DNA of 64,000 nucleotides, from NCBI GenBank assembly GCA_965242925.1, contig CBDEUM010000029.1, positions 288,001-352,000 of the forward strand. Direction: 5' to 3'. Positions 4,689 through 26,680 of the stretch are shown here, piece by piece (within the stretch, counting starts at the first letter, position 1; each line of letters begins with the position of its first letter). The position numbers were made by a program, and so were the translations under genes. The notes under the pieces were generated by a model, which was not told the DNA's origin, did no database searches, and saw only the letters and a program-made list of their open reading frames with translations. The DNA is from Roseibacillus sp. Its GTDB lineage: Bacteria > Verrucomicrobiota > Verrucomicrobiia > Verrucomicrobiales > Akkermansiaceae.

Positions 4689-6125
4689 TCAGGCCAGGAT
4701 CTCGTTGATCACTTTTCCTGCCACGTCGGTAAGACGAAAATCACGACCGTTGAAGAAATAGGTGAGACGTTCGTGATCGATGCCGAGGAGATGGAGGATA
4801 GTGGCGTGCAGGTCGTTGACACTGACCCGGTTTTCCACCGCCTTGTATCCAAATTCGTCACTCGCACCGTAGTGGGCACCCCCCTTGATGCCCCCTCCAG
4901 CCATCCACATGGTGAAGGCGTTGGGATTATGGTCTCGTCCCTTGCCGCTCTGGGCGTCCGAGGTGCGGCCGAATTCACCTCCCCAGACCACGAGGGTATC
5001 CTCGAGCATTCCCCGTGACTTGAGGTCCGAGAGAAGGGCGCCGATGGGCTGATCAACGCTCTTGGCTGCGATCCGATGGTTGGCACCGATGTCATTGTGG
5101 CCGTCCCACGGGACGTCGGCCACGCCACCACCGCCGCCATTGGTCCCGGCGTAGAGCTGCACGAAGCGAACCCCTCTTTCAATGAGCCTTCGGGCCATGA
5201 TGCACTGACGGCCCACGAGCTGGGTCTCCTTCTGGTCCAGTCCGTAGGCCTGCTGAGTGGCTTTCGACTCCTTGTCCACGTCCATGGCTTCCGGAGCAGC
5301 CGTCTGCATCCGGTAGGCGAGTTCGAAGGATTCAATCCGGGCGGCGAGATCCCGTTCGAGGGAACGGGGCTCCCCATGGGCACGATTCATCGCTCTCAGG
5401 ATATCGAGCTGGGCCCGTTGGTGCTGGTCGCCCATGTTCTTGCGTCGTGTCAGATTGCCGATGGGGTTGGTCCCGTTGATTGCGGTGGGTTGGAACTTCT
5501 TTGGAAGGAAGCCGGGTGCCCAGATTGGTTTGCCTCCGCGGGGCATGGCACCGTGCAGGACGACGAACCCGGGAAGGTTCTGGTTTTCGCTGCCGAGGCC
5601 GTAGGTCACCCAGGAACCCATGGCGGGCCGTCCCTGCAGGAACATCCCGGAGTTCATCTCCAGCATGGCCGGGGTGTGATTGTTGGATTGCGAGAAGCAG
5701 GAATAGAGGAAGGCCATGTCGTCCACATGCTTCGCCATGCTCGGGAAAATTTCAGAAACCCAGGTTCCGGACTCGCCGTGCTGCTGCCACTCGAACGGAG
5801 AGGCGAGGATCTTTCCGTTGGTAGTGAAAAATCCGGTCTTGGGATCGGCGCCTTCCAGTTTTTCCCCGTTCCGTTTCTGGAGCTCCGGCTTGTAGTCGAA
5901 GGTGTCGACCTGGGATGGGCTGCCGGGCATGAAAAGCCAGATCACCGACTTTGTCTTCGGCTTGAAGTGCGGTCCGGGGATCGGCATGGAGGCACCGGTC
6001 TGGGAGGCTGTTTGTCCCAGCAGGCCTTCCTCGCTGAGGAGTTTGGTCAGGGCCAGGGAACCGCAGCCCAGTCCTGCCTTCTGGAGGAAGTCGCGGCGGG
6101 AATTATAGAAAAGGGAGTCGCTCAT
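4689..6125 (-). CDS. DUF1501 family protein (Tat-like leader)
   Basis: SRRDFL leader; SVIWLFMPGSPSQVDTFDYKP, ARRLIERGVRFVQ, WDGH, GEFGRT, GRDH. Confidence 0.9.
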   Translation of the reverse strand: MSDSLFYNSRRDFLQKAGLGCGSLALTKLLSEEGLLGQTASQTGASMPIPGPHFKPKTKSVIWLFMPGSPSQVDTFDYKPELQKRNGEKLEGADPKTGFFTTNGKILASPFEWQQHGESGTWVSEIFPSMAKHVDDMAFLYSCFSQSNNHTPAMLEMNSGMFLQGRPAMGSWVTYGLGSENQNLPGFVVLHGAMPRGGKPIWAPGFLPKKFQPTAINGTNPIGNLTRRKNMGDQHQRAQLDILRAMNRAHGEPRSLERDLAARIESFELAYRMQTAAPEAMDVDKESKATQQAYGLDQKETQLVGRQCIMARRLIERGVRFVQLYAGTNGGGGGVADVPWDGHNDIGANHRIAAKSVDQPIGALLSDLKSRGMLEDTLVVWGGEFGRTSDAQSGKGRDHNPNAFTMWMAGGGIKGGAHYGASDEFGYKAVENRVSVNDLHATILHLLGIDHERLTYFFNGRDFRLTDVAGKVINEILA

Positions 6126-6126
6126 A

Positions 6127-8718
6127 TCAGTCTACAAAGATGAATTCGTTCAGGCAGATCACGGTCTGGCAGAAGTCTGCGATCGCCAGTTTCATGGCCT
6201 GCGCATCGCTGCCGTAGGATGCGGCCTGTCCCTGGATGAAGGCAACCATCTGCTGCTGTTCGCCGGGAGCCGGGGGGCGGGCCAGGGCATGAGTGTAGGC
6301 TCTCCGGACCACCTCGTCGACAGGGACCTTGTCGTCGGAATGAATACGCTGGGCAAATTTCTCGGCCATTTCCCGGACATAGGGAGAGTTCATCATGGCC
6401 AGGGCCTGGGGTGGAACCGTGGTGGAGATTCGTTTGCCGATGCTCTGCATGGCGTCCGGGGCATCAAAGAGTTGCAGGATGGGAATCAGGTTACTGCGCT
6501 TCACGGTAAGATAGATGCTGCGCCGGGCATGGCGCTGGTCCACAGTGCCCTTGTCGAACATGCGTTTGTCGAGGGTTCCGCTGACGGCAAGGAGCGAGTC
6601 TCGGATCACTTCCGCCTCCAGGCGGGTGGCTCCCCGCCGCCACCAGAGCCTGTTCTCCGGATCGACCTTGCGGGCGAGTTCGTTGGAGCCTCCCTGCTGG
6701 CGATAGACGGAACTCATCATGATCATCTTGTGGATGGGCTTGAGTTGCCAGCGGTGGCGGATGAGTTCCGCGGCGAGGTGGTCCAGCAGTCCGGGATGGG
6801 TGGGAGCTGCACCCTGGGTCCCAAAGTCGCTGGGCGTGTTCACGATGCCGCGTCCCATGTGGTGCTGCCAGAGGCGGTTCACGATTACGCGCGCAAGGAG
6901 GTGACCGGCTCCCCGCTGTTCGTCGGTGATCCAGTGGGCCAGGGCGACGCGGGGAGGACGATTCTCCGTGGTGGTGAGCCAGTGAGCCTCGTCCGCCCCC
7001 TCTGCCTGCAGGACGCGAAGAAAGGCCGGGGTGGCGAGCTCCTGTTTGGCATTGGAGTTTCCGCGCTCGAGGAAGTAGACCTTGCGGGTGTCACCCCCGA
7101 AGTTGTAGGTCGCTCCTCCCGTGCGGGCTGCATAGATGTTCACCAGGGCCGGCTTGGGAGTTTTCTTGGTGTGCTCCTCGACGGCGAGGTTCAGTTTGCC
7201 CCAGTCCGGGTCCCGCGGGGCGAACCACTTGAGGAGTTCCTGTTTCTGCTTCTCGTTGCGCTTGTCCGGGGACAGGGCGAGGATGTCCTCGATGTTCTTG
7301 GGGACCTCCGGATTGGTGCTGAAGTAGAAGCCGGAACCGCCTCCACCATTGACGATTTTGATCAGCAACTTGTTGGTGCCGGCCTTGAGCTGCAGGGTGA
7401 TCCGGTCCTGGTCCTTGGCCACTCCGCCCTGGACTTCCTTGGCCAGCACGGACTGGCCGTTGAGCCAGACCTTGATGGCATCGTCCCGGCCCAGGGAGAT
7501 GGGGAGAGGGCGCGCCTTGGGGACCTCGATGGTGCGGAAGAGATAGTTCGCGCTGTTGTCTCCCTGGAGGGTGTTGTGGATTACCCCGTCCTTCCATTCC
7601 GGCCTGGCGAGCCACTTCCTGTCACCGTAGGCCTTGGCGAGGTCGATTTCCTTCTCCGGGGGGAAAGCCTCGTTGTAGGCCTTCTTGAAGTCCGCAGCCC
7701 CGAAGGGACCGATATGATGCCAAGGGCTGAGGTTCTCGAGGGAAGCCGGTTTCTCCCGCTTGGCGACCCACTCGGTCAGGCGGGTTGGGAGCACATCCTG
7801 CTCAAAACGGGCCCGGGTTTCGACGAGGGGTTTGTGGGTAGCCTCAAAGCGTTCCTTGTCGGCTTTCGTCTTAGCCGGATCAGGATCGTGAGCATGGTTC
7901 TGGAAGCCGGTTTCCGCGAAGCAGGAGACAAGGCGGTAGTAATCCCTGATTGGAACGGGGTCGTATTTGTGGTCGTGGCAGCGGGCGCATCCGATCGTCA
8001 GGCCGAGCATGGAGGTTCCCATGGTATGGACAATATCGTCCAGTTGCTCGTAGCGACTGCGTTCCCGCTCCTTCTGTGTCTGCTGGGAGGTGAAGGGGCC
8101 AGCCGCCAGGAACCCGGTGGCGGCCTGGGCCATATAGTTTTCCGGTTCTATCTGATCGCCCGCGATCTGCAGTTGGACGAAGCGATCGTAGGGCATGTCT
8201 TCGTTCAGCGCCTTGATGACGAAGTCACGATAGTGATAGGCATCGCCACGGTCCTTGTCGAAGGCGTAGCCATTGCTCTCGGCGAAGCGGGCGAGGTCCA
8301 GCCAGTGGCGGGCCCACCGCTCTCCGTAGTGGGGGCTGGCGAGGAGCCTGTCGATGAGCTTCTCATAGGCCTCCGGAGATTCATTGCCGAGGTAGGCCTC
8401 AATGGCGGCCGGTTCCGGGGGGAGTCCCCAGAGACCAAACATGGCCCGTCGGAAGAGCGTACGCCGGGAGGCTTCCGGGTTCGGGGACAGATTCTGTTTC
8501 TCGAGAGGGGCAAGAATGAAGCGGTCAAGGTGGGTGCGCACCCAGGACTCGTTCTTCACGTCGGGTGGTTTGATGGTCCTGAGGGACTGAAAGGACCAGA
8601 ACTTGCGGCCCTTCTCAAGGTCGATCATCCGGGGAGGGGAAGGGGCTTCCTCGGCGATTGCGATCCCGCCGAGGGCGGTGCAAACCATGGCGGACAGGGC
8701 AATGGGAACACGGCTCAT
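6127..8718 (-). CDS. DUF1549/DUF1553 (PSD1-type) protein with CxxCH and inserted beta-sandwich domain
   Basis: YGERWARHWLDLARFAES, CARCHDHKYDP, ARVIVNRLWQHHMGRG, QALAMMN; start ATG 8718 precedes a signal peptide. Confidence 0.9.
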   Translation of the reverse strand: MSRVPIALSAMVCTALGGIAIAEEAPSPPRMIDLEKGRKFWSFQSLRTIKPPDVKNESWVRTHLDRFILAPLEKQNLSPNPEASRRTLFRRAMFGLWGLPPEPAAIEAYLGNESPEAYEKLIDRLLASPHYGERWARHWLDLARFAESNGYAFDKDRGDAYHYRDFVIKALNEDMPYDRFVQLQIAGDQIEPENYMAQAATGFLAAGPFTSQQTQKERERSRYEQLDDIVHTMGTSMLGLTIGCARCHDHKYDPVPIRDYYRLVSCFAETGFQNHAHDPDPAKTKADKERFEATHKPLVETRARFEQDVLPTRLTEWVAKREKPASLENLSPWHHIGPFGAADFKKAYNEAFPPEKEIDLAKAYGDRKWLARPEWKDGVIHNTLQGDNSANYLFRTIEVPKARPLPISLGRDDAIKVWLNGQSVLAKEVQGGVAKDQDRITLQLKAGTNKLLIKIVNGGGGSGFYFSTNPEVPKNIEDILALSPDKRNEKQKQELLKWFAPRDPDWGKLNLAVEEHTKKTPKPALVNIYAARTGGATYNFGGDTRKVYFLERGNSNAKQELATPAFLRVLQAEGADEAHWLTTTENRPPRVALAHWITDEQRGAGHLLARVIVNRLWQHHMGRGIVNTPSDFGTQGAAPTHPGLLDHLAAELIRHRWQLKPIHKMIMMSSVYRQQGGSNELARKVDPENRLWWRRGATRLEAEVIRDSLLAVSGTLDKRMFDKGTVDQRHARRSIYLTVKRSNLIPILQLFDAPDAMQSIGKRISTTVPPQALAMMNSPYVREMAEKFAQRIHSDDKVPVDEVVRRAYTHALARPPAPGEQQQMVAFIQGQAASYGSDAQAMKLAIADFCQTVICLNEFIFVD

Positions 8719-8849
8719 ATGAGACCCCGATGATAGGCCCTCCGCGCCATTGGGCAAACGGGATCTTCCCGCCCGATGGGAGGACCTCAGTGGGATGGGA
8801 CCGGTATCCCTGGCGGACCGAGCTTCGGCGAGTCTCACCGGTCGGTTTC

Positions 8850-10259
8850 TCAGACCCCGAGCCCTCTGATTGGAAGAGCCTCGGAGATATACTGAGTGAG
8901 CTGTTCGGGGAGTTTGTCCGCCTCGCGGAGTTTTCCCATGTCAAAGAGCGTCCGCATGATCGTTCCCATCAGGTTCCGGGGGCCAAACCCTTCGGTGGCT
9001 GGTTCCGCGGCGATGTTGTCCGACTCTCCGATGACCTGTCCCATGTGGAGTCCTCCCCCGGCGAGGAGGAGGCTGGTGAGCTTCCCATAGTGGTCGCGCC
9101 CGCCATTTTTGCTGAGTTTCGGGGTTCTTCCCATCTCGCTGGTGACCACGAGGAGGACATCATCGCTCAGGCCCCGCTGAGCGAGATCCTCAATGAAGGC
9201 GCTCACCGCGTGATCGACCTGGCCGCCCATGGGGTAGAGCCCCTCCATGTTCTTGGGGCTGTTGTTGTTGGCGTGGTAGTCCCACCCGCAGTCGGAAACC
9301 GTGACAAATCCCGCGCCCTGCTCCACGAGACGGCGGGCCATGAGCATCTGCAGGCCGAGAAGATTACTGGCCCGGCGCATGTCGTGCCAGCGCTGGAGCT
9401 TCTTCTGGTCGAAAAGGGGACGGGTGTCGTAGCGGGCCACCGTGCGGGGATCCTCCCCGGACAGGTCAAAGGCCTTGTCGATGCCGGCGGTGAGGACGTC
9501 GAAGGCCTGTTGCTGGACCCGGTCGGCTCCCTCGATCACCCCTGATTCGTCGGCCTGGCGGCGCAGGCTGTCGAGCTTGGAGAGGAGCGTCCGGCGATCG
9601 GTGAAGCGGTCCGGGTCGAGGGTTAGTTGCATGTCGTCGCGCAGGGGGCCCCCACCCGAGGGATTGAAGGCGCCATTCGGAGCCCCGAGTTTTCCGGGAG
9701 CGGCCACGGTGGGAAGGGCCTTGGTCTCGAAATTGCTCTCGAGCTTCAGGGTAGGATCGACGGCTTCGGGAAGAATGAGGGTGTTGTTGGGAATCGAGGC
9801 CGGTCCGAGGGGGCCTGCCACCTTGGAGTAGATCGCTCCCATCGAGGCCTCAAGGGGGTTGCCGGCGGTGGCGACCGATCCGTAGGTGTGCTGGCCGTTG
9901 TTGGACCCGTAGGAGCGGACCACGGAGAACTTGTCCGCCATCGCGGCCAGTTTGGGAAAGGTTGAGCCGAAGGTGATCCCGGGGAGCTTGGTCTTGATCT
10001 CCCCGGTGATGCTGCGCACCTCCCGCGGAGCGGTCATCTTCGGATCGAAGAATTCAATATGGGGTGCCCCCCCGTGGAGGAAGAGCAGGACCACCGATTT
10101 GCCCCGGAGCACCCCGGGGGTCCCGGCCGCGGCGGCCTTGGTGGCGAGGAGACCCGGAAGCCCCAGTCCGGCCAGGCCGAGGGAACCGACCTGCAGGAAG
10201 TCCCGCCGGGAATAGCCCGCGCAGGTCCGGTTCAGGGAGGGGTCGGAGATACGGATCAT
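8850..10259 (-). CDS. DUF1501 family protein (Tat-like leader)
   Basis: SRRDFLQVG leader; SVVLLFLHGG, ARRLVEQG, WDYH, EMGRTP, GGRDH. Confidence 0.9.
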   Translation of the reverse strand: MIRISDPSLNRTCAGYSRRDFLQVGSLGLAGLGLPGLLATKAAAAGTPGVLRGKSVVLLFLHGGAPHIEFFDPKMTAPREVRSITGEIKTKLPGITFGSTFPKLAAMADKFSVVRSYGSNNGQHTYGSVATAGNPLEASMGAIYSKVAGPLGPASIPNNTLILPEAVDPTLKLESNFETKALPTVAAPGKLGAPNGAFNPSGGGPLRDDMQLTLDPDRFTDRRTLLSKLDSLRRQADESGVIEGADRVQQQAFDVLTAGIDKAFDLSGEDPRTVARYDTRPLFDQKKLQRWHDMRRASNLLGLQMLMARRLVEQGAGFVTVSDCGWDYHANNNSPKNMEGLYPMGGQVDHAVSAFIEDLAQRGLSDDVLLVVTSEMGRTPKLSKNGGRDHYGKLTSLLLAGGGLHMGQVIGESDNIAAEPATEGFGPRNLMGTIMRTLFDMGKLREADKLPEQLTQYISEALPIRGLGV

Positions 10260-10399
10260 GTCAGAAGGAACGTAAAGCCGCTGCCTTTTCTATCCCTTGC
10301 GGGAATCGCTTTCATTAATACACGATTCGATCTCCGGGAGAAAGGCTGAAAATGGATGGGCAGGACCGGTCCTATGTCACTTTTCGTTGCGCTCCAAAC

Positions 10400-10428
10400 T
10401 TGCTCTTAAGGCCGGTTTGTGCTATGCT
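10400..10428 (+). promoter_or_regulatory. Sigma70-type promoter with extended -10
   Basis: TTGCTC (10400-10405), 17-nt spacer, TGnTATGCT (-10 at 10423-10428); predicted start ~10435, at the 5' end of the riboswitch. Confidence 0.7.
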
Positions 10429-10435
10429 TCCGGCA

Positions 10436-10556
10436 GCATTCAGAGTGGTTCTGCCAGCCGAGAGGTGAAGGAACCCGGCAACCTGTCGCGGAGACGACAA
10501 GGTGCCTGTGCCAGCTGGCACGATGCGCGGCCCGAAAGGGCTGAACGAAGGTCTCC
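10436..10556 (+). ncRNA. SAM riboswitch, SAM-I superfamily (SAM-IV or SAM-I/IV-like)
   Basis: P1 GCAUU/GAUGC with CAGAG junction; P2 GGUUC/GAACC; P3 GGCAACC-UGUCG...CGACA-AGGUGCC; P5 GGCCC-GAAA-GGGCU; L3 GGAGAC (10490-10495) complementary to GUCUCC (10551-10556). Confidence 0.8.
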
Positions 10557-10630
10557 CTGCCCCGCTCGGGGGCGTTCGTTCAGCTCGGCCGTGGCTCCGG
10601 GTGCTTCTCCACCGGAAAGGAACCAGCATC

Positions 10631-10864
10631 ATGAGCCAAACAGCAAGCAAACCAGCCGTCCACCTCGTCAGCAAGACACGGGGCTCCCATCCCAATCACC
10701 ACCTCACCAACAACAATGGAACGTGGTGGTGCCAGATCACCATTCACCAGGGTCCGTTCTCGAGGCGGCTCCGCTTCTCCCTTGGAACGGGGGAATTGGA
10801 GCGGGCCCGCGCCCTCCGGGACCGGGTCTTTGACAATCTCACTTCCGGGGTCCGGGCGGCCTGA
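10631..10864 (+). CDS. 77-aa hypothetical protein, possible AP2/integrase-arm-like DNA-binding domain
   Basis: GAAAGGAA RBS before ATG 10631; NHHLTNNNGTWW...RLRFSLGTGELERARALRD; directly downstream of riboswitch. Confidence 0.75.
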   Translation: MSQTASKPAVHLVSKTRGSHPNHHLTNNNGTWWCQITIHQGPFSRRLRFSLGTGELERARALRDRVFDNLTSGVRAA

Positions 10865-11334
10865 TGAACCACGTCCCTCTGCCACGAACTGGAAACTGAA
10901 AACGGATGAACGGGAAAGAGAATAACACGCCCTCGCCTCAAGCGGGGAAGAAGGATGCGACGACCGGGGGGCTGCCCCCGATTCCGAGGGGATCTCTTCC
11001 CTCTCTCCCTGATTCACACCCGCTGTTCAAACGGGGCTTCGTGATCGGCGGGAGAGGGTTCAACCGGCAGGGGACCAAAAAGGACCCCAGGCAGCAGGGC
11101 GGTCGGGGTCACCGTTGAGAAACAGGAAACAATCAGTCAGATGGAATGTGGATATTTACCAGCAAGGGGCCTCCTGCTCCCATCTCCCTTGCCATTTGGC
11201 GGAGTGATGCCCTAGTTAGTCCTGCCCGCTCAAATCTCCGTGTGAGCCATTGAGCCCAATCAGCACCGACCACAAAACCCGTGAAAACTGCGAACTGAAT
11301 TTGTCCCCTTCCAGCCCTGACCTGTATCCTGTCC

Positions 11335-11724
11335 ATGGCGGGTTCCATGGTCACGGCTGCGCCGGATGGAAACCGGCTGGTGCACCTCGATGAACCGAAC
11401 AATCCGTGGCAGTTCCACCGCCACCCGACCCTCGAAGTCCCAGATCAACGTCACGCCTTGGCCCGTGGCCGTCATCACAACCGCGAAGGCGGCGAGCAGG
11501 GCCACGCCAGGGCTCAGTTTGCTTTCGGCCAGGCCTGCGCCGCGGGCAGCGGAATTCCCCGCAACATCGCGGAAGCCCTCAAGTGGCTCACCCTCGCGGT
11601 CAACTCGGGATACGGATCAGCCGCTGACGATGAACTCGCCGCCCTCAAGGCCAAGGCCTCACCGGCCGAGATCGCCGAGGGCCGGAAGCTCTCCGGCGAG
11701 TGGAAGCAGAAGGCCCCGGAGTAG
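11335..11724 (+). pseudogene. Chimeric ORF of gene fragments: 5' end of the 20114 gene, antisense 5' end of the CotH gene, Sel1-like repeat tail
   Basis: 11380-11421 = 20201-20242; 11413-11468 = 16530-16585; then EQGHARAQFAFG...EALKWLTLA (Sel1-like). Confidence 0.75.
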
Positions 11725-11897: not shown

Positions 11898-14800
11898 TTA
11901 CGGGGCGGGGCTTGGGCGACCCGTGACGTTCAGCCGGAGGAATTGTGTGTTCTGAACGCTGATCGGAGCGGTGGAACGCCAGGTTTCCAGGACGGTGCCG
12001 TCATTTTGGTTGTGGCGTGACACAAACGCGACTGCAGTTCCCCGGAGCCAGGTAACGAGATCCTCGGATTGCTCGACGTGGCAGATGACGTCGTCCGCGG
12101 CGAGGTTGCGTTCGAAGGTCATAGTGAGATAGCGATCCGTCCCACCGATCCCACCGATCCCACCGATCCCAGTATCGAAGGAGCCGATGCCGGGCGTCGG
12201 GAGTGGCGTGGTGATCGAAGTTCCCGCCAGGGCGTGTTCGAGAAAGTCGCTGAGTCCATCGTTATCGCTATCGGCGACGGGATCGCCTGCGAAGTCGATG
12301 GCGTCGGTGCTACCGGGATTTCCACCGACCGCCACGCTGGGCCGCCAACTAAATGGATCGTTGTGATCCGGGTTGCTACGGGGGGCGATGAGCACCAGAC
12401 TGAAGCCGACCCCGTCGGCGCTCTCGGGCCACGGAAACTTGTCGTCATAAGTGAAAGACTGAACCACGGTGGTCCCATCCCCACCGAGGATCGTAATCGT
12501 CTCGCCTTCGTTGGCCAGATTTCCAGCATACTCTCCATGCGGCGCAAAGCCGTAGCGTTCTGTGAAGGCGGCGGCGTTTTTCGCGAGGACGAGACGCCCC
12601 TGCGGAAGCAGCGTGGTCCCGAGCGGAAAACCGAAATCGATCCCAGCCGAGAAGGAAAGCAGGGAGAGATCGATCGGACCATTGCTGATGTTCATCAATT
12701 CGAGAAACTCGTAGCCCTTTCGTTCCTGACCAACGAGGGCCTCGGCCGGAGTCTGCGGAGGGAGCGGATGGTGGTTGATCTCGCTGACCACGAGGTTGCT
12801 CGCATCGGCGGGAGTTCCCACAATAAGGGGAGCCTCCACCAAAGCGCTCCAAGTAGTTCCATCCAGGACCCGCGCCCGCAGCAGCGCCGAGGTCGAGGGC
12901 CTGAAGGGAGCGGTGTAGAGTTGCGCAGTCGCGGAGGTTCCGGTGGCACTGGTAGCATTGGATACCAGCTGTGGCAGAACCAACATGTCGTTGCTTGCCG
13001 CGGAGTCGTTCATGGCGTGAATCGCCAGCACATTGTTTCCGAGCTGCAGCCCCCCTTTGTGAGCGGAAATGTCGAAGGGCTGGAAGGCGGTGGCCTGCCG
13101 GTCGATTCGGTCGGAGGTCGCCTCCGATTGCCAGTCCAGTACGCCCGGCTCGTTCTCAGCGGCGACTCGCGTCCCGTTCAAGTAGGCCACAAATCCCGAA
13201 TCGTACTTCATGTTCAGCGTAAGGCTGTCGATGTGGTCGAGGGTGGCCTGGTTGGCGATGGTGAAGGGGATTCGCACATAGACCGAGGCGGTGGCATCCA
13301 TCATCTCGGGGACGTAGTGATTAATGAGATCCTCAAAGGCATCCGGAACTTGTTCGAAGCCCACTCCAGTGCTGCCTGACTTCCACACGGCCAGGTTGAA
13401 CGGATCGGCCAGTCCGGTCCACTGCGCGGGGATGAGGGCTGAACCGCCGTTCGCCACCGAGGGGACGAGGGCGCGGACATCTGGAGCAAATTCAGAGAGC
13501 AGCACCACCTCCTCGTTGGAGGTGTTCGACCTGCGCGGGTCCGTGTCGTCGGTCGTGAAATAGATGGCGCCGGAAGCCGGAGCCGTAAACCCAACCAGCG
13601 TATCGCCGACGGTCCCCCCGTGCCGAGGCACACCGTCGACGCGAATCTCGGGTGGAGCGAGATCGGGATAGAGGCCAAGCGCACGGAGCTGATTCAAAAC
13701 AACTCCCGTGCGCTGGGGAAAGTAGGACCGCAACAGGCGGTCGCGCTCGGGGATCCAGTGGTCGTCGCGCGTGTACAAATGATAGGGTCCCCGCAGGATC
13801 GAGTTGACGTCACGCCGGTAGTCGCCCCAGCGCGCCGACTCCGCAACCACCGCAAGCTCAATCTCAGCGGCCAGCGCCGCGTAGCGCGCCGCGGCGACCT
13901 CGGGTAGCAGCACGCCGTCGTTGAAGAAGTGCCACTGAATGCGGTCTGCAACCATGAGGCGGAACTCTTCGTTGCCGCGCAGGCGGTGGAACAGATGAGC
14001 GGGCGAAGTCGGGTGGTTAGCTCCCGTGACGTTGATGCCGACAGTTTCCATCGAGGCCTCGGCGTCCCAGGTGAAGAACCGATACTTGCCGGGAGGTTCG
14101 CGGCGGCGGGCGGCGGTCCAATTGCTGCCCGGCCAATCGTTGTTCCCGATCCAGAAGTTGATCAACATGTAGTCGATCAGGTTGGTCAGATCGAGCGCCT
14201 CGCTAATCGCCTGGAGCTCTTCCGGTGAGGAGACGCCGCTGTTTACCAAGTCGACCAGGGCGTTGTAGGAGTTCGCGCTGCCGTCTTGGACTTCGATCCG
14301 CCCGACATCGAGATTGACGACATCCCAGTCCTCCTCGTTGCCGCCGAGGATCTCCGCGAGCCAAGATGCGCGGATTCGCTCGATTGGGTTGTAAAGGCCC
14401 CAATAGTGACCGTTGATGTAGAGGTGGGCAAAGTTGCTCCTGACCGAAGTCTGCCCCATCAGGCCGAAGGTGTCGTGGACGAACTTGTCGATGACGTACT
14501 GAGCCTGCGGCCGTGGCGCGCCGACGCCCCAGGCGCCGTCGTGGATCCATGCGTCGAGGTATCCGGAGCGCAGACTGAAGGTGTCGTAGCGGTTGGTCGA
14601 CGAATCATCGAACATCTGGAACTCCAATTTGGCCGCGCCGTAAGCCTCTTTGAACAACAGGCGCAGGGAGTGCTTCGGCGACTTGTCGGGCTGTCGGCTG
14701 GCCCCGCCCTGGATGCGGATACCAGCGTCGACCTGGAACTCCCGTCCGCCCGCAGAGTTGAAATACTCGACCGACACCGGCCGCTCCCAATCCGGTCCAC

Positions 14801-16688
14801 GGTTCGCGTCGCTGCAGCAGTTACCGGGATTCGCGTAAATGCCGAAACTCGGGTCGAACAAGTCGCCCGCGTCCAGCACCAGGGAAATGGTCGGGATTGA
14901 CCGCAGGGCGTCACTCATGATGCCACTGAAGCGCGGATCTCTGGTGACCTCTGGGTCCATGCCGTAGTCCGCCCGGCCGCCGCCCACCCACGACGCGGGC
15001 AACGTAGGGGGCGTGTTGTCCTGGACGACGATATCCTCGATGAAGAAGTAGCTCTGCGTGTCGACGTTGGTCGGGCTCAGCCCTGTCTTGAATGCCATTG
15101 CGCGCAGGGTGGTTGTCGAGCTGATCTGGATCGGATCGGTGTAGCGGTTTCCATGGGTGTCGGACGGTGCGCTGCCATCGACCGTGAAGCGTACTCGCGC
15201 TCCGGGGGTGGCAGTCGTGATCTCCACCTGGATGGGCGTGTCGTAAAAGCCACCGTCGACGCTGAAGGTGGTGTCGCCGACGGATCCCTCAAAGCCGGGT
15301 TCGTTTGGGAGACCGGGAGTGGGCGGATCAAAGAAACCCCGCTCCAGCGCGACTCCGAAGAGTCCGTAAGAGACGTCGGGTTTCTGTTCCGGAAAGGCCG
15401 GCGAATACTCGCACGTGATACTCACACCGTCCGGCCTCACGAGCGCGAGATACTCGCCATCGCCATCCAGCCGGAAGTTGGTATGCAGCTGGCGTCCGGC
15501 CACCGCCCGGTCCTTGCCTGAGGCGAAGACCAGGACGTAGTCACCGCCATCCAGCAAGTGAGGCGGGAACCGCCACTTGGTGAGAAAGTTCGGGTCGTCA
15601 GTGAGATGCCAGCCGTCCAAGTCGATCTCACTACTGGCGGTATTGCAGATTTCGATCCAATCCGTATTCTCGCCATCTTCGTCGAGCAAGGAGTCATCGT
15701 TGATGGCAAGAAACTCGGTGATGGTAAGAGTCTCTCCTGCGATTACGAAGGTAGTGGCCGTAGCGGTCCCCTCCGCGTTGGTGGCGATCAGGGTGTAGGT
15801 GGTGGTGACGAGCGGGTTAACTACCACGCTGGACTGTCCGGTCACGTCACCGACATCGGGGGTGACGGCGGTCGAGGGAATGCCGCCCAGCGGATCGACG
15901 ATGGTCCAGGAAAGCGTCACGGGCGTCCCGGCCATGATGCTCTGCGAACTCGCCGTGAACGAGATGATTTCGGGAATTGCGGGAAGACCGGCATTCTGCA
16001 CCACGATGTTGTCGACCGAGACCGTGCCCCAGCCGCGGGTGGTGCCGTCCACAACGCGCAAGTATACTCCACGTTGTCCGGTGATTCCAGCCGCCTGCAG
16101 TTCCGGGTTCGTCCAGGCGCGGTGGTGCAGAAAGCCGCCTCCCAGGCTCTCCGAAATAATGACATCTCCAGTTTCGGCATCATGCAGGAACAGTCCGTTG
16201 GGTGGCGCACCCCCGCCAAGGTCCATCGTGAAGGAACTGGTCTCGTCGATGAGGAAGGTGTCACTGATGAACTCCCCCATGTCGCCGTCTCCGTGTTTGA
16301 AGTGCGCGGCGCCGTTGAAACCCCAGTCCGCTCGAAGGAGCCACTCGTTCAGTGGGTGGGCACCGGGCGTGTCGGTGATGAGGCTCTCATCATCGATGGC
16401 GTTGTAGCGGACCGGGTTGCTGGGGACTCCTTCCTCGAACCGATCAAAGCTGTCACCACCCCCGGGGGTGGTGAGATGAAACTTGAGGGCTCCGCTCGTA
16501 TCGTAGAGCCGATCCTGCACCGGGTCGTTTTCCACCGCCACCCGACCCTCGAAGTCCCAGATCAACGTCACGCCTTGGCCCGTGGTCGTCATCGCGACCG
16601 CGAAGGCGACAAGCAGCCTCACATGATGGAGCAACAGACACACAGCTGATAGAGGGGGTATGCCGCACTGCGGGTCGAGCCACGGCAT
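11898..16688 (-). CDS. Large secreted CotH-kinase-family protein with lamin-tail and FN3-associated domains
   Basis: ITEFLAIN..DWIEI and VVSEINHHP..EFLEL (lamin tail), RFTVDGSAP, HLYINGHYWGLYNPIER and NNDWPGSNW..WDAE (CotH); start uncertain. Confidence 0.85.
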   Translation of the reverse strand: MPWLDPQCGIPPLSAVCLLLHHVRLLVAFAVAMTTTGQGVTLIWDFEGRVAVENDPVQDRLYDTSGALKFHLTTPGGGDSFDRFEEGVPSNPVRYNAIDDESLITDTPGAHPLNEWLLRADWGFNGAAHFKHGDGDMGEFISDTFLIDETSSFTMDLGGGAPPNGLFLHDAETGDVIISESLGGGFLHHRAWTNPELQAAGITGQRGVYLRVVDGTTRGWGTVSVDNIVVQNAGLPAIPEIISFTASSQSIMAGTPVTLSWTIVDPLGGIPSTAVTPDVGDVTGQSSVVVNPLVTTTYTLIATNAEGTATATTFVIAGETLTITEFLAINDDSLLDEDGENTDWIEICNTASSEIDLDGWHLTDDPNFLTKWRFPPHLLDGGDYVLVFASGKDRAVAGRQLHTNFRLDGDGEYLALVRPDGVSITCEYSPAFPEQKPDVSYGLFGVALERGFFDPPTPGLPNEPGFEGSVGDTTFSVDGGFYDTPIQVEITTATPGARVRFTVDGSAPSDTHGNRYTDPIQISSTTTLRAMAFKTGLSPTNVDTQSYFFIEDIVVQDNTPPTLPASWVGGGRADYGMDPEVTRDPRFSGIMSDALRSIPTISLVLDAGDLFDPSFGIYANPGNCCSDANRGPDWERPVSVEYFNSAGGREFQVDAGIRIQGGASRQPDKSPKHSLRLLFKEAYGAAKLEFQMFDDSSTNRYDTFSLRSGYLDAWIHDGAWGVGAPRPQAQYVIDKFVHDTFGLMGQTSVRSNFAHLYINGHYWGLYNPIERIRASWLAEILGGNEEDWDVVNLDVGRIEVQDGSANSYNALVDLVNSGVSSPEELQAISEALDLTNLIDYMLINFWIGNNDWPGSNWTAARRREPPGKYRFFTWDAEASMETVGINVTGANHPTSPAHLFHRLRGNEEFRLMVADRIQWHFFNDGVLLPEVAAARYAALAAEIELAVVAESARWGDYRRDVNSILRGPYHLYTRDDHWIPERDRLLRSYFPQRTGVVLNQLRALGLYPDLAPPEIRVDGVPRHGGTVGDTLVGFTAPASGAIYFTTDDTDPRRSNTSNEEVVLLSEFAPDVRALVPSVANGGSALIPAQWTGLADPFNLAVWKSGSTGVGFEQVPDAFEDLINHYVPEMMDATASVYVRIPFTIANQATLDHIDSLTLNMKYDSGFVAYLNGTRVAAENEPGVLDWQSEATSDRIDRQATAFQPFDISAHKGGLQLGNNVLAIHAMNDSAASNDMLVLPQLVSNATSATGTSATAQLYTAPFRPSTSALLRARVLDGTTWSALVEAPLIVGTPADASNLVVSEINHHPLPPQTPAEALVGQERKGYEFLELMNISNGPIDLSLLSFSAGIDFGFPLGTTLLPQGRLVLAKNAAAFTERYGFAPHGEYAGNLANEGETITILGGDGTTVVQSFTYDDKFPWPESADGVGFSLVLIAPRSNPDHNDPFSWRPSVAVGGNPGSTDAIDFAGDPVADSDNDGLSDFLEHALAGTSITTPLPTPGIGSFDTGIGGIGGIGGTDRYLTMTFERNLAADDVICHVEQSEDLVTWLRGTAVAFVSRHNQNDGTVLETWRSTAPISVQNTQFLRLNVTGRPSPAP
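12141..12167. repeat. 9-bp tandem repeat (CCCACCGAT)x3, in frame, encoding GIGGIGGIGG
   Basis: Read directly. Confidence 0.9.
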
Positions 16689-16891
16689 CGTTTGGGCCTT
16701 TATATAAGGCGCGTTCCGCGGCCAGAGCAAACCATTATCGGGCTCCCTCTTTCTTGCACCTAACAGGAAGGAAAATTTATCTGCAATTTCCTTGCGACTC
16801 CGTGTGCCTCGTTCCTATGATATTTTAAATATATCTCGTTCTCGAGACTCGCCGACCCGCTAACTGCCAACATCCAAAATACACAACGAAA

Positions 16892-26603: not shown

Positions 26604-26680
26604 TGGCGCGCCCGAGAGGAGTCGAACCCCTAACCTCCTGATCCGTAATCAGGCGCTCTATCCAATTGAGCTACGGGCGC
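26604..26680 (-). tRNA. tRNA-Arg(ACG)
   Basis: Reverse complement GCGCCCGTAGCTCAATTGGATAGAGCGCCTGATTACGGATCAGGAGGTTAGGGGTTCGACTCCTCTCGGGCGCGCCA; cloverleaf, anticodon ACG, encoded CCA. Confidence 0.97.

Follow-up and report, generated by a model that had tools for sequence, protein, structure and literature searches.

The riboswitch unit and its features

S-Adenosylmethionine (SAM) riboswitches are a textbook case of an RNA that directly switches the genes making or importing its ligand. In a 64,000-nt stretch of DNA from Roseibacillus sp. (hereafter the window, meaning the whole stretch that was analysed), an aptamer of the SAM-I/IV class lies just 5' of an open reading frame (ORF) for a very small protein of 77 amino acids (aa), and it is this pairing that we describe here. 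An initial annotation had read a promoter, an aptamer of the SAM-I superfamily, a ribosome-binding site and the small ORF as one compact unit. All of these parts are present, with the start codon at 10631 and not at 10632. The promoter is read by inspection. A strict scan for the sigma-70 consensus called none before the aptamer; the TTGnnn-17-TAnnnT geometry recurs at the same place in relatives. Positions are window coordinates throughout, and L-, G- and P-numbers label loci, genomes and protein records, respectively. The unit consists of the following features, with folds predicted as minimum free energy (MFE) structures or from alignments:

10373..10380, + strand: candidate box TATGTCAC, consensus TATGWCA(C), from the alignment of promoter regions, just 5' of the promoter
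10400..10428, + strand: promoter-like elements read from the sequence (-35 TTGCTC at 10400-10405, 17-nt spacer, -10 TATGCT at 10423-10428)
10431..10559, + strand: SAM-I/IV aptamer (Rfam RF01725)
10436-10440 with 10522-10526, and 10528-10531 with 10540-10543, + strand: aptamer helix P1 and P4 stem
10490-10495 and 10551-10556, + strand: aptamer P3 loop GGAGAC and pseudoknot strand GUCUCC
10538..10597, + strand: expression platform, a predicted alternative hairpin without a U tract (RNAfold MFE, RNAalifold)
10593..10637, + strand: predicted hairpin able to bury the start codon (RNAfold MFE)
10614-10622, + strand: Shine-Dalgarno-like GGAAAGGAA
10631..10864, + strand: 77-aa ORF, start ATG at 10631

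A SAM-I/IV aptamer

The Rfam model of SAM-I/IV (RF01725) matches 10431-10559 with 42.8 bits, above the gathering score of 41.1, at E = 0.0014 for the whole window and 3.5e-5 for a 1.65-kb region, where the runner-up was Glutamine-II on the opposite strand (19.9 bits against a cut-off of 33). It is the sole non-tRNA Rfam family that reaches its gathering score in the 64 kb. In the window's own genome, which is 89.9% complete, this is the single RF01725 match and also the sole SAM-clan match found; the SAM-I model matches the same site weakly (24.6 bits), and the SAM-IV, SAM-II and S-adenosylhomocysteine (SAH) models gave nothing at E <= 0.1 in that genome among 150 first-pass candidates scored per model, with the SAH control matching nowhere.

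Relatives were examined because the RF01725 score alone is marginal. The model matched in 19 of 41 related genomes at E <= 0.001 (20 matches, 9 genomes above the cut-off) and in 27 of 151 genomes across the order, representing 12 of 39 genera, and the riboswitch loci in the order numbered 41, of which 20 came from the 41 close-relative genomes and 21 were further loci across the order. A custom covariance model built from 41 related aptamers, the window's own sequence being part of the training set, scores the window aptamer at 100.6 bits and matches nothing else in the window at E <= 1e-5. RNAalifold recovered P1-P4 from 20 aptamers, with both sides changed in 9 of 27 pairs. In an alignment of 47 aptamers, which was fitted to the custom model and so leans towards the structure, 95.4% of pair cells are standard as against 79.1% in shuffles (none of 500 reached the observed value), both-side changes occur in 17 of 25 pairs, and slid controls are 23-42% paired. 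The pseudoknot that joins the P3 loop to the 3' tail covaries too, as GGAGAC/GUCUCC in the window and, for instance, as CGAGAC/GUCUCG, UGGAGAA/UUCUCCA and UGGAGU/ACUCCA; relatives have four complementary loop/tail versions besides that of the window, with per-sequence shuffles that are individually weak.

By these comparisons the window element is a genuine SAM-I/IV aptamer, for which SAM is the presumptive ligand, and the superfamily assignment in the initial annotation stands. Weinberg et al. 2010 (PMC2864571) described the SAM-I/IV riboswitch as 'several phyla, marine', with a P2 that lacks the internal loop of SAM-I and SAM-IV; when the window aptamer is aligned to the Rfam model, a long insertion falls in its P2 loop. 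Like the class as a whole, the window element passes the gathering score, has P1-P4, the CAACC/AGGUG/GAUGC core and the P3-loop-tail pseudoknot, and comes from a marine organism, here a member of Verrucomicrobiota. Unlike it, the gene controlled here encodes a DNA-binding-like protein of 77 aa and not a methionine, cysteine or SAM enzyme or transporter, and several aptamers of Planctomycetota and Opitutaceae fall below Rfam detection.

One could suppose that this variant senses a ligand other than SAM, such as SAH or another SAM-derived compound. Many relatives score near or below the Rfam threshold, Rfam at E <= 0.05 did not pick up the variants of Planctomycetota and Opitutaceae, and in this genus one J1/2 position differs from the Rfam consensus. 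Set against this, the strands CAACC, AGGUG and GAUGYGC are kept along with the P1-P4 layout and the pseudoknot, and metK lies downstream in some loci, so that we give a different ligand very little weight.

A widespread and conserved small gene

The 77-aa ORF is a protein-coding gene, widespread and conserved. Among nine same-genus orthologues, differences in the core fall on the three codon positions as 116/80/637, and 556 synonymous codon differences stand against 137 non-synonymous ones; this third-position bias indicates purifying selection. In an alignment of 20 sequences, some of them from other families of the order, 17 columns do not vary; the invariant residues of the 77-aa protein are HHL-N-G-WW-T-H-R-R-SL-T-A-RD.

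The initial annotation had taken the protein for an orphan, which it is not. A profile search of 1.84 billion representatives returned 1018 at E <= 0.001 (678 at E <= 1e-10), the best 150 of which are 68-172 aa long. Nearly all of the 1018 are small proteins that stand alone, from Verrucomicrobiota, Planctomycetota and related groups. In contigs representing one genome per species, at least 586 of the 597 pattern matches listed encode a relative of the small protein, and the matches listed carry the labels Akkermansia, Luteolibacter, Rubritalea, Opitutaceae, Planctomycetota and Lentisphaerae, among others. Near-identical proteins occur in records labelled Roseibacillus sp. or Akkermansiaceae, and the ORF was found in 70 of the 151 genomes of the order, usually as a single copy. 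NCBIfam has no family for it. Tandem pairs of the small ORF occur at L035, L037, L039, L056, L061, L085 and L092.

Remote kinship to integrase arm-type domains

The initial annotation likened the protein to AP2/integrase arm-type (DUF6538-like) DNA-binding domains, and this has held up as a remote likeness. The protein is very basic (isoelectric point 11.7), and the Pfam family DUF6538 (PF20172) is matched at E <= 1 by all 20 aligned members (best E 2.2e-5; one relative reaches 23.6 bits). When compared by hhalign with five true DUF6538 integrase N-termini from relatives, the family gave a probability of 94.5% and E 7.6e-8 over 38 columns. Arm-DNA-bind_3 and AP2 are matched by single members. 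AlphaFold2 predicts strands at residues 25-28, 31-40 and 43-50 and a helix at 56-72, with a mean predicted local confidence (pLDDT) of 74.5 and 83-90 in the core. In a language-model atlas, the nearest annotated clusters are integrase DNA-binding families (0.91), which we take as a lead only, and a profile search of Protein Data Bank (PDB) sequences produced a chance RING-finger match only (E 1.4).

These comparisons support the small protein as a remote homologue of the DUF6538/integrase arm-type domain, and suggest that it binds DNA. By its predicted model, it would have in common with DUF6538, the arm domains of tyrosine integrases and the AP2-ERF fold a three-stranded sheet packed on a helix. 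With the DUF6538 arm domains in particular, the profile-profile probability given above covers strands 2 and 3 and the beginning of the helix, and the two have in common an aromatic pair in strand 2 and the segment R-x-SL-x-T-x-D-x-x-x-A. It differs from integrase arm domains in standing alone, with no recombinase fusion found and a score below the Pfam threshold, in its extra invariant N-terminal HHL-x-NN-x-G, and in being a single-copy chromosomal gene under a riboswitch.

Longer forms are rare (n=25), and none of the 25 contains a recombinase domain. Three distinct proteins (P0199, P0200 and P0203) are sigma-70 factors with regions 2-4 that carry the small domain at the C-terminus, following a linker rich in Pro, Ser and Thr. 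In P0189 the small domain is followed by a CheY-like receiver and DUF4388, and one longer form is a tandem duplicate.

Given the likeness to an integrase N-terminal domain, the ORF could be the dead N-terminal remnant of an integrase, with the RNA alone functional; a tRNA gene also lies ~130 nt 3' of the homologue in Roseibacillus ishigakijimensis (L083:3301-3373). We rejected this explanation and give it practically no credence, as it is contradicted by the third-position bias that marks purifying selection, by the 1018 representatives, the best 150 of which are nearly all of 68-172 aa, by the lack of an integrase catalytic domain in all 25 longer forms, and by the presence of one copy per genome in most genomes.

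Linkage of riboswitch and small ORF, and neighbouring SAM and methionine genes

The pairing is the rule among relatives. The small ORF follows within ~70-135 nt 3' of the aptamer in 19 of 20 close-relative loci and in 19 of 21 further loci, or 38 of 41 in all. In the three exceptions (L003, L104 and L105) the riboswitch precedes a MoxR-like AAA_5 ATPase, and none of the 41 riboswitch loci directly precedes a classical methionine gene. Starting from the protein, a set of 80 family loci of the small ORF was assembled, and the custom model placed an aptamer directly before the ORF in 26 of them, 12 of these 26 being training sequences. The 26 include records of Planctomycetota, Lentisphaerae and Opitutaceae, and Lentisphaerae (L076) and Planctomycetota (L057 and L062) are among the new aptamer loci; several such variants had gone undetected by Rfam.

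For the other 54 family loci, mostly of the Akkermansia type, the custom model found no aptamer. With its filters off, the best match at 15 aptamer-less loci was E 0.24, and no riboswitch class was found before members lacking SAM-I/IV, either at the Rfam gathering score (20 loci) or at Rfam E <= 0.05 (10 loci). Akkermansia-labelled loci without a SAM aptamer (L069:2866-3003, L072-L101) have a leader of their own, with TTTTTTGAAC, a long inverted repeat around GYGTCTA and then GGTTCAGAAACGAACGCGGACACC; it has no Rfam match, and its RNAalifold consensus consists of a 5-pair helix only.

Most small ORFs at riboswitch loci are monocistronic and the next gene is convergent. The initial annotation had raised the prospect of a metabolic operon merely truncated in the window; metK, with all three Pfam domains, follows the ORF in just 3 of the 38 loci (L004, L103/L126 and L115), and its start overlaps the stop codon of the small ORF in L103/L126 and L115. 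Directly 5' of the small ORF and on the same strand, 14 of the 80 family loci have a Cys/Met enzyme dependent on pyridoxal phosphate (PLP) (PF01053), which is the commonest neighbour outside riboswitch loci. This cystathionine-gamma-synthase-like enzyme (L035:1416-2906, L083:1300-2892, L080:1179-2819 and L134:1367-2866) has an N-terminal extension of ~150-250 aa, and its best NCBIfam match is BesB-like, with 193-230 bits against a cut-off of 800. At L124:1515-6019 (- strand), the riboswitch drives the AAA_5 ATPase (491 aa), a 644-aa protein without a Pfam family and a divergent MetK-like gene of 362 aa, in a genome where the small ORF was not found. The same ATPase family stands 3' of the small ORF in L029, L055 and L062. 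Together, the recurring partners metK, PLP enzyme and MoxR-like ATPase point to SAM/methionine homeostasis, as far as gene context can tell.

In the window's genome, the PLP gene has no adjoining small ORF, and metK-ahcY is on another contig (L135:1821-4001, G000 contig C14), where the tandem metK and ahcY lie beside a divergent gene for an ArsR-type/methyltransferase-like (SahR-like) protein. A conserved palindrome, ATCAACAAATCACGATTTGTTGAT, is found 5' of metK across the genus.

These neighbours also allow a different role for the small protein, which might be made at low SAM to act on MetK as a partner or modulator, or on a chaperone system of the MoxR type through which MetK matures. The three loci with metK behind the ORF, two of them with the stop/start overlap (L115 and L126), the L124 cluster of ATPase, 644-aa protein and MetK-like gene, and the ORF standing before the same ATPase family in L029, L055 and L062 would all fit, as would the kinship of this ATPase, whose only relative among PDB sequences is RavA (E 0.006). 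Such a partnership is harder to reconcile with an ORF that is mostly monocistronic with a convergent next gene, with metK on another contig in the window's genome, with remote homology to DNA-binding arm domains and fusions to sigma factors, and with a promoter box that tracks the ORF (see below), and we judge it distinctly unlikely.

Expression platform and transcripts

In many relatives, a hairpin with a U tract directly 3' of the aptamer (L003-L006, L013, L021, L040, L054, L058, L059, L068 and L100) gives the usual terminator layout of a SAM-OFF switch. In this genus there is no U tract. Here 10538-10556, which comprises the 3' strand of P4 and the pseudoknot strand, is predicted to pair with 10568-10586, with a base extension of 10526-10530 to 10589-10593 in the RNAfold MFE structure. 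RNAalifold finds this alternative hairpin conserved in 12 same-genus leaders (27 pairs, 2 with compensatory changes). The AUG can be enclosed by GGCUC/GAGCC together with GGUGCU (10600-10605)/AGCAUC (10625-10630) in the RNAfold MFE structure. The GGUGCU strand is also complementary to the 5' strand of P1, and the three strands change together in L014 and L016; other members fit less well. The layout in relatives and the predicted folds make an OFF switch at high SAM likely, with occlusion of the start codon probably the off mechanism in this genus.

Contigs from RNA libraries (metatranscriptomes) of separate studies cover the aptamer and the ORF. They span 10444-11442, 10443-10773 (with adapter abutting 10443) and 10502-11264, those of two studies having their first position at 10443/10444, and three of four runs show nothing over 10290-10413. 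Such contigs give no strand, ends or level, and DNA contamination of these libraries is possible, so that they are a weak hint of a transcript that starts from the predicted promoter and reads through the ORF.

A conserved box at the promoter

All same-genus loci have TATGTCAC upstream of the promoter; beyond the genus, other families and phyla included, the form seen is TATGACA(C/A/G). The box typically lies 9 nt 5' of the -35 TTG. When counted as TATG[AT]CA within 70 nt ending 20 nt before the aptamer, the box is present in 56 of 59 evaluable riboswitch+ORF loci from two collections, a count that is not de-duplicated by species and includes kin that are not independent. It is present in none of the three riboswitch+ATPase loci and in 137 of 13000 random control windows (1.05%). 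It clusters 46-50 nt before the aptamer start, and 56-60 nt in this genus. Of the genomes with ATPase loci, G030 (L003) is listed without the small ORF, and G069 and G077 are not among the 70 in which the ORF was found. At riboswitch-less loci, the exact box occurs on either strand within 170 nt 5' of 13 of 61 family ORFs, compared with 121 of 5400 controls (2.2%), and versions with one mismatch are found in the gap behind the PLP gene.

Where the ORF is duplicated, the reversed box TGTCATA lies ~53-55 nt before the ATG of the second copy in L035, L037, L039, L085 and L092, and in L039 the box apparently sits between -35-like and -10-like hexamers. The second copies in L056 and L061 have the shorter TTGTCAT only, and a single copy in L066 is preceded by the reversed box.

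Because the box travels with the gene and lies within reach of a domain tethered to a sigma factor, we consider TATGWCA(C) best explained as a candidate operator of the small protein itself.

The protein might also be a nucleic-acid binder with some other role, whether nucleoid-associated, RNA-binding or mobile-element-derived, with its SAM control incidental. In favour of this are its strongly basic character, its descent from a domain of mobile elements, its retention in 31 of 31 genomes of a sister genus that lack the riboswitch, the variety of its gene neighbourhoods, and a search for a regulon that came up empty. Nevertheless, the riboswitch linkage is kept across phyla, the recurring neighbours are methionine/SAM genes, the fusions to sigma factors and a receiver point to transcription, and no integrase or transposase gene was noted beside the small ORF in the loci examined. 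We rate a binder of this kind as unlikely, if still deserving of some weight.

Gene neighbourhood in the window

Beyond the unit, the features of the window that bear on it are these:

10865..11442, + strand: stretch 3' of the ORF, on the same RNA contigs, with no convincing gene; it includes a doubtful ORF (10906-11118) and, near 11146, the remnant of a truncated gene
11898-16730, - strand: next convincing gene 3', a CotH/LTD protein, convergent
26607-26680, - strand: tRNA (Rfam, gathering score)

As the initial annotation had claimed, no met, cys, metK or transporter gene lies 3' of the unit within the window. The ORF at 10906-11118 (70 aa, start MNGKENNTPSPQ) is kept in four close relatives; it has no coding signature, with codon-position differences of 137/55/164 and 99 synonymous against 174 non-synonymous differences. 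It is probably no gene, or owes its conservation to something else. The stretch 11146-11250 (MWIFTSKG...) is what remains, in truncated form, of a gene for 117-135 aa; L007, L008 and L010 have this gene intact 3' of the unit. The remnant has no Pfam family, and tblastn of the window's genome showed no intact copy elsewhere. Between the unit and the convergent CotH gene, an ORF of 129 aa (11335-11724) has one sub-threshold match to a Sel1 repeat and is possibly a gene fragment.

On the 5' side of the unit, two DUF1501 genes and a PSCyt2/PSD1 gene occupy 4689-10259. Genes of these kinds and sulfatases are typical of polysaccharide-degrading marine Verrucomicrobiota. The suggestion that the small protein relays sulfur status to the nearby sulfatases finds no support: the two sulfatase genes (33-2727) are 8-10 kb from the unit, the genes flanking the unit vary among relatives, and neither the sulfatases nor the DUF1501 and PSCyt2/PSD1 genes are linked to the riboswitch unit in a conserved way.

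Proposed mechanism

On balance, we lean somewhat towards the small protein being a SAM-repressed, probably autoregulated DNA-binding regulator that is tied to SAM/methionine status. Transcription would start just before 10431. When SAM is plentiful, the aptamer would fold into P1-P4 and the loop-tail pseudoknot, and the 77-aa ORF would be off, through an intrinsic terminator in more distant relatives and, in this genus, probably through release of a downstream strand that leaves the start codon buried. When SAM is low, the long alternative hairpin would disrupt the aptamer and the ORF would be made. Its product, seemingly a stand-alone descendant of an integrase arm-type domain, would most likely bind DNA next to promoters. 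The best candidate site is the TATGWCA(C) box at its own promoter, which would make the gene autoregulated, and this box is placed just where one would expect a domain attached to a sigma factor's C-terminus to sit. In this way, SAM shortage could be relayed to transcription through the small protein.

A more specific version of this proposal can be offered tentatively, and we regard it as rather doubtful when taken as a whole. The protein would be a promoter-proximal factor acting beside sigma region 4, made only when SAM is scarce and binding TATGWCA(C) 5' of the -35; it would form an autoregulatory relay and serve as a SAM-starvation regulator common to Verrucomicrobiota, Planctomycetota and Lentisphaerota, with the domain welded onto a sigma factor in some lineages.

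Several observations tell against a SAM-repressed DNA-binding regulator, or against parts of it. For the aptamer, in addition to the J1/2 deviation, the Rfam margin above threshold is 1.7 bits, and 11 of the 20 close-relative matches are below the threshold. For the switch, the start-codon helix was not recovered by RNAalifold from the 12 same-genus leaders and has little covariation support. For the fold, the DUF6538 match of the window's protein is below threshold (15.9 bits against 27, E 0.01), and although the predicted model has the three strands and helix expected of an arm-type domain, Foldseek against the PDB gave nothing at E <= 0.001, with an arm domain of a P4-like integrase at rank 23. 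Structural matches are weak, PX and PH domains being tied at Z 4-5 and PX ranked first (Z 4.4-5.1), in the same band as the HPI integrase arm domain 3jtz (Z 4.4, root-mean-square deviation 2.2, 50 aligned, 24% identity), lambda Int 1z1b and 2wcc (Z 4.2) and AP2 2gcc (Z 3.7). For the regulatory role, since the sister genus keeps the protein in 31 of 31 genomes without any SAM-I/IV aptamer, that role is not bound to the riboswitch. Since metK-ahcY have a SahR-like regulator and palindrome of their own, the small protein is not needed for their control. For the box, the genome has 136 occurrences of TATGWCA[CA], a handful of them outside long open frames, with no convincing second promoter, and no 7-10-mer is common to the riboswitch-unit, PLP-gene and metK promoters within the genus; the box might instead be bound by some other factor.

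Relation to known systems

Other riboswitches are said to act through regulators, such as the Vc2 cyclic di-GMP riboswitch before tfoY in Vibrio, the B12 riboswitches acting on PocR and EutV in Listeria and Enterococcus, and the SAM riboswitch SreA acting on prfA. The arrangement described here resembles them in placing a metabolite-sensing RNA atop a regulatory cascade, and differs in that a cis-acting SAM riboswitch would directly gate a predicted DNA-binding protein. SahR, reportedly characterised by Novichkov and colleagues, is said to control the SAM cycle; it belongs to the ArsR-type regulators and has a methyltransferase-like domain. Both would be protein regulators tied to SAM-cycle genes, and a SahR-like gene and palindrome stand beside metK-ahcY in the window's genome, as noted above. 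Unlike the small protein, SahR senses its ligand as a protein and has an unrelated fold; the small protein is without a ligand domain, and the sensing would be left to the RNA. We found no report in the literature of a SAM riboswitch paired with such a small DNA-binding-like protein, and none on DUF6538. The pairing is not mentioned in the available part of PMC2864571, whose supplementary gene-context tables may show hypothetical genes after some SAM-I/IV representatives.

Implications

In this genome the one SAM riboswitch that could be detected, and in the order almost all those of the SAM-I/IV class, control a very small, uncharacterised protein. It has the look of a domesticated integrase domain for DNA binding, and its pairing with the riboswitch is found again in several related phyla of bacteria. 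The comparisons define a large new family of stand-alone arm-type domains, with a candidate DNA site and a ligand context. If the protein is a regulator, SAM status would be governed by a two-tier circuit in which an RNA senses and a protein acts. Little is known of gene regulation in the superphylum concerned, to which Akkermansia belongs; all Akkermansia genomes sampled have the protein.

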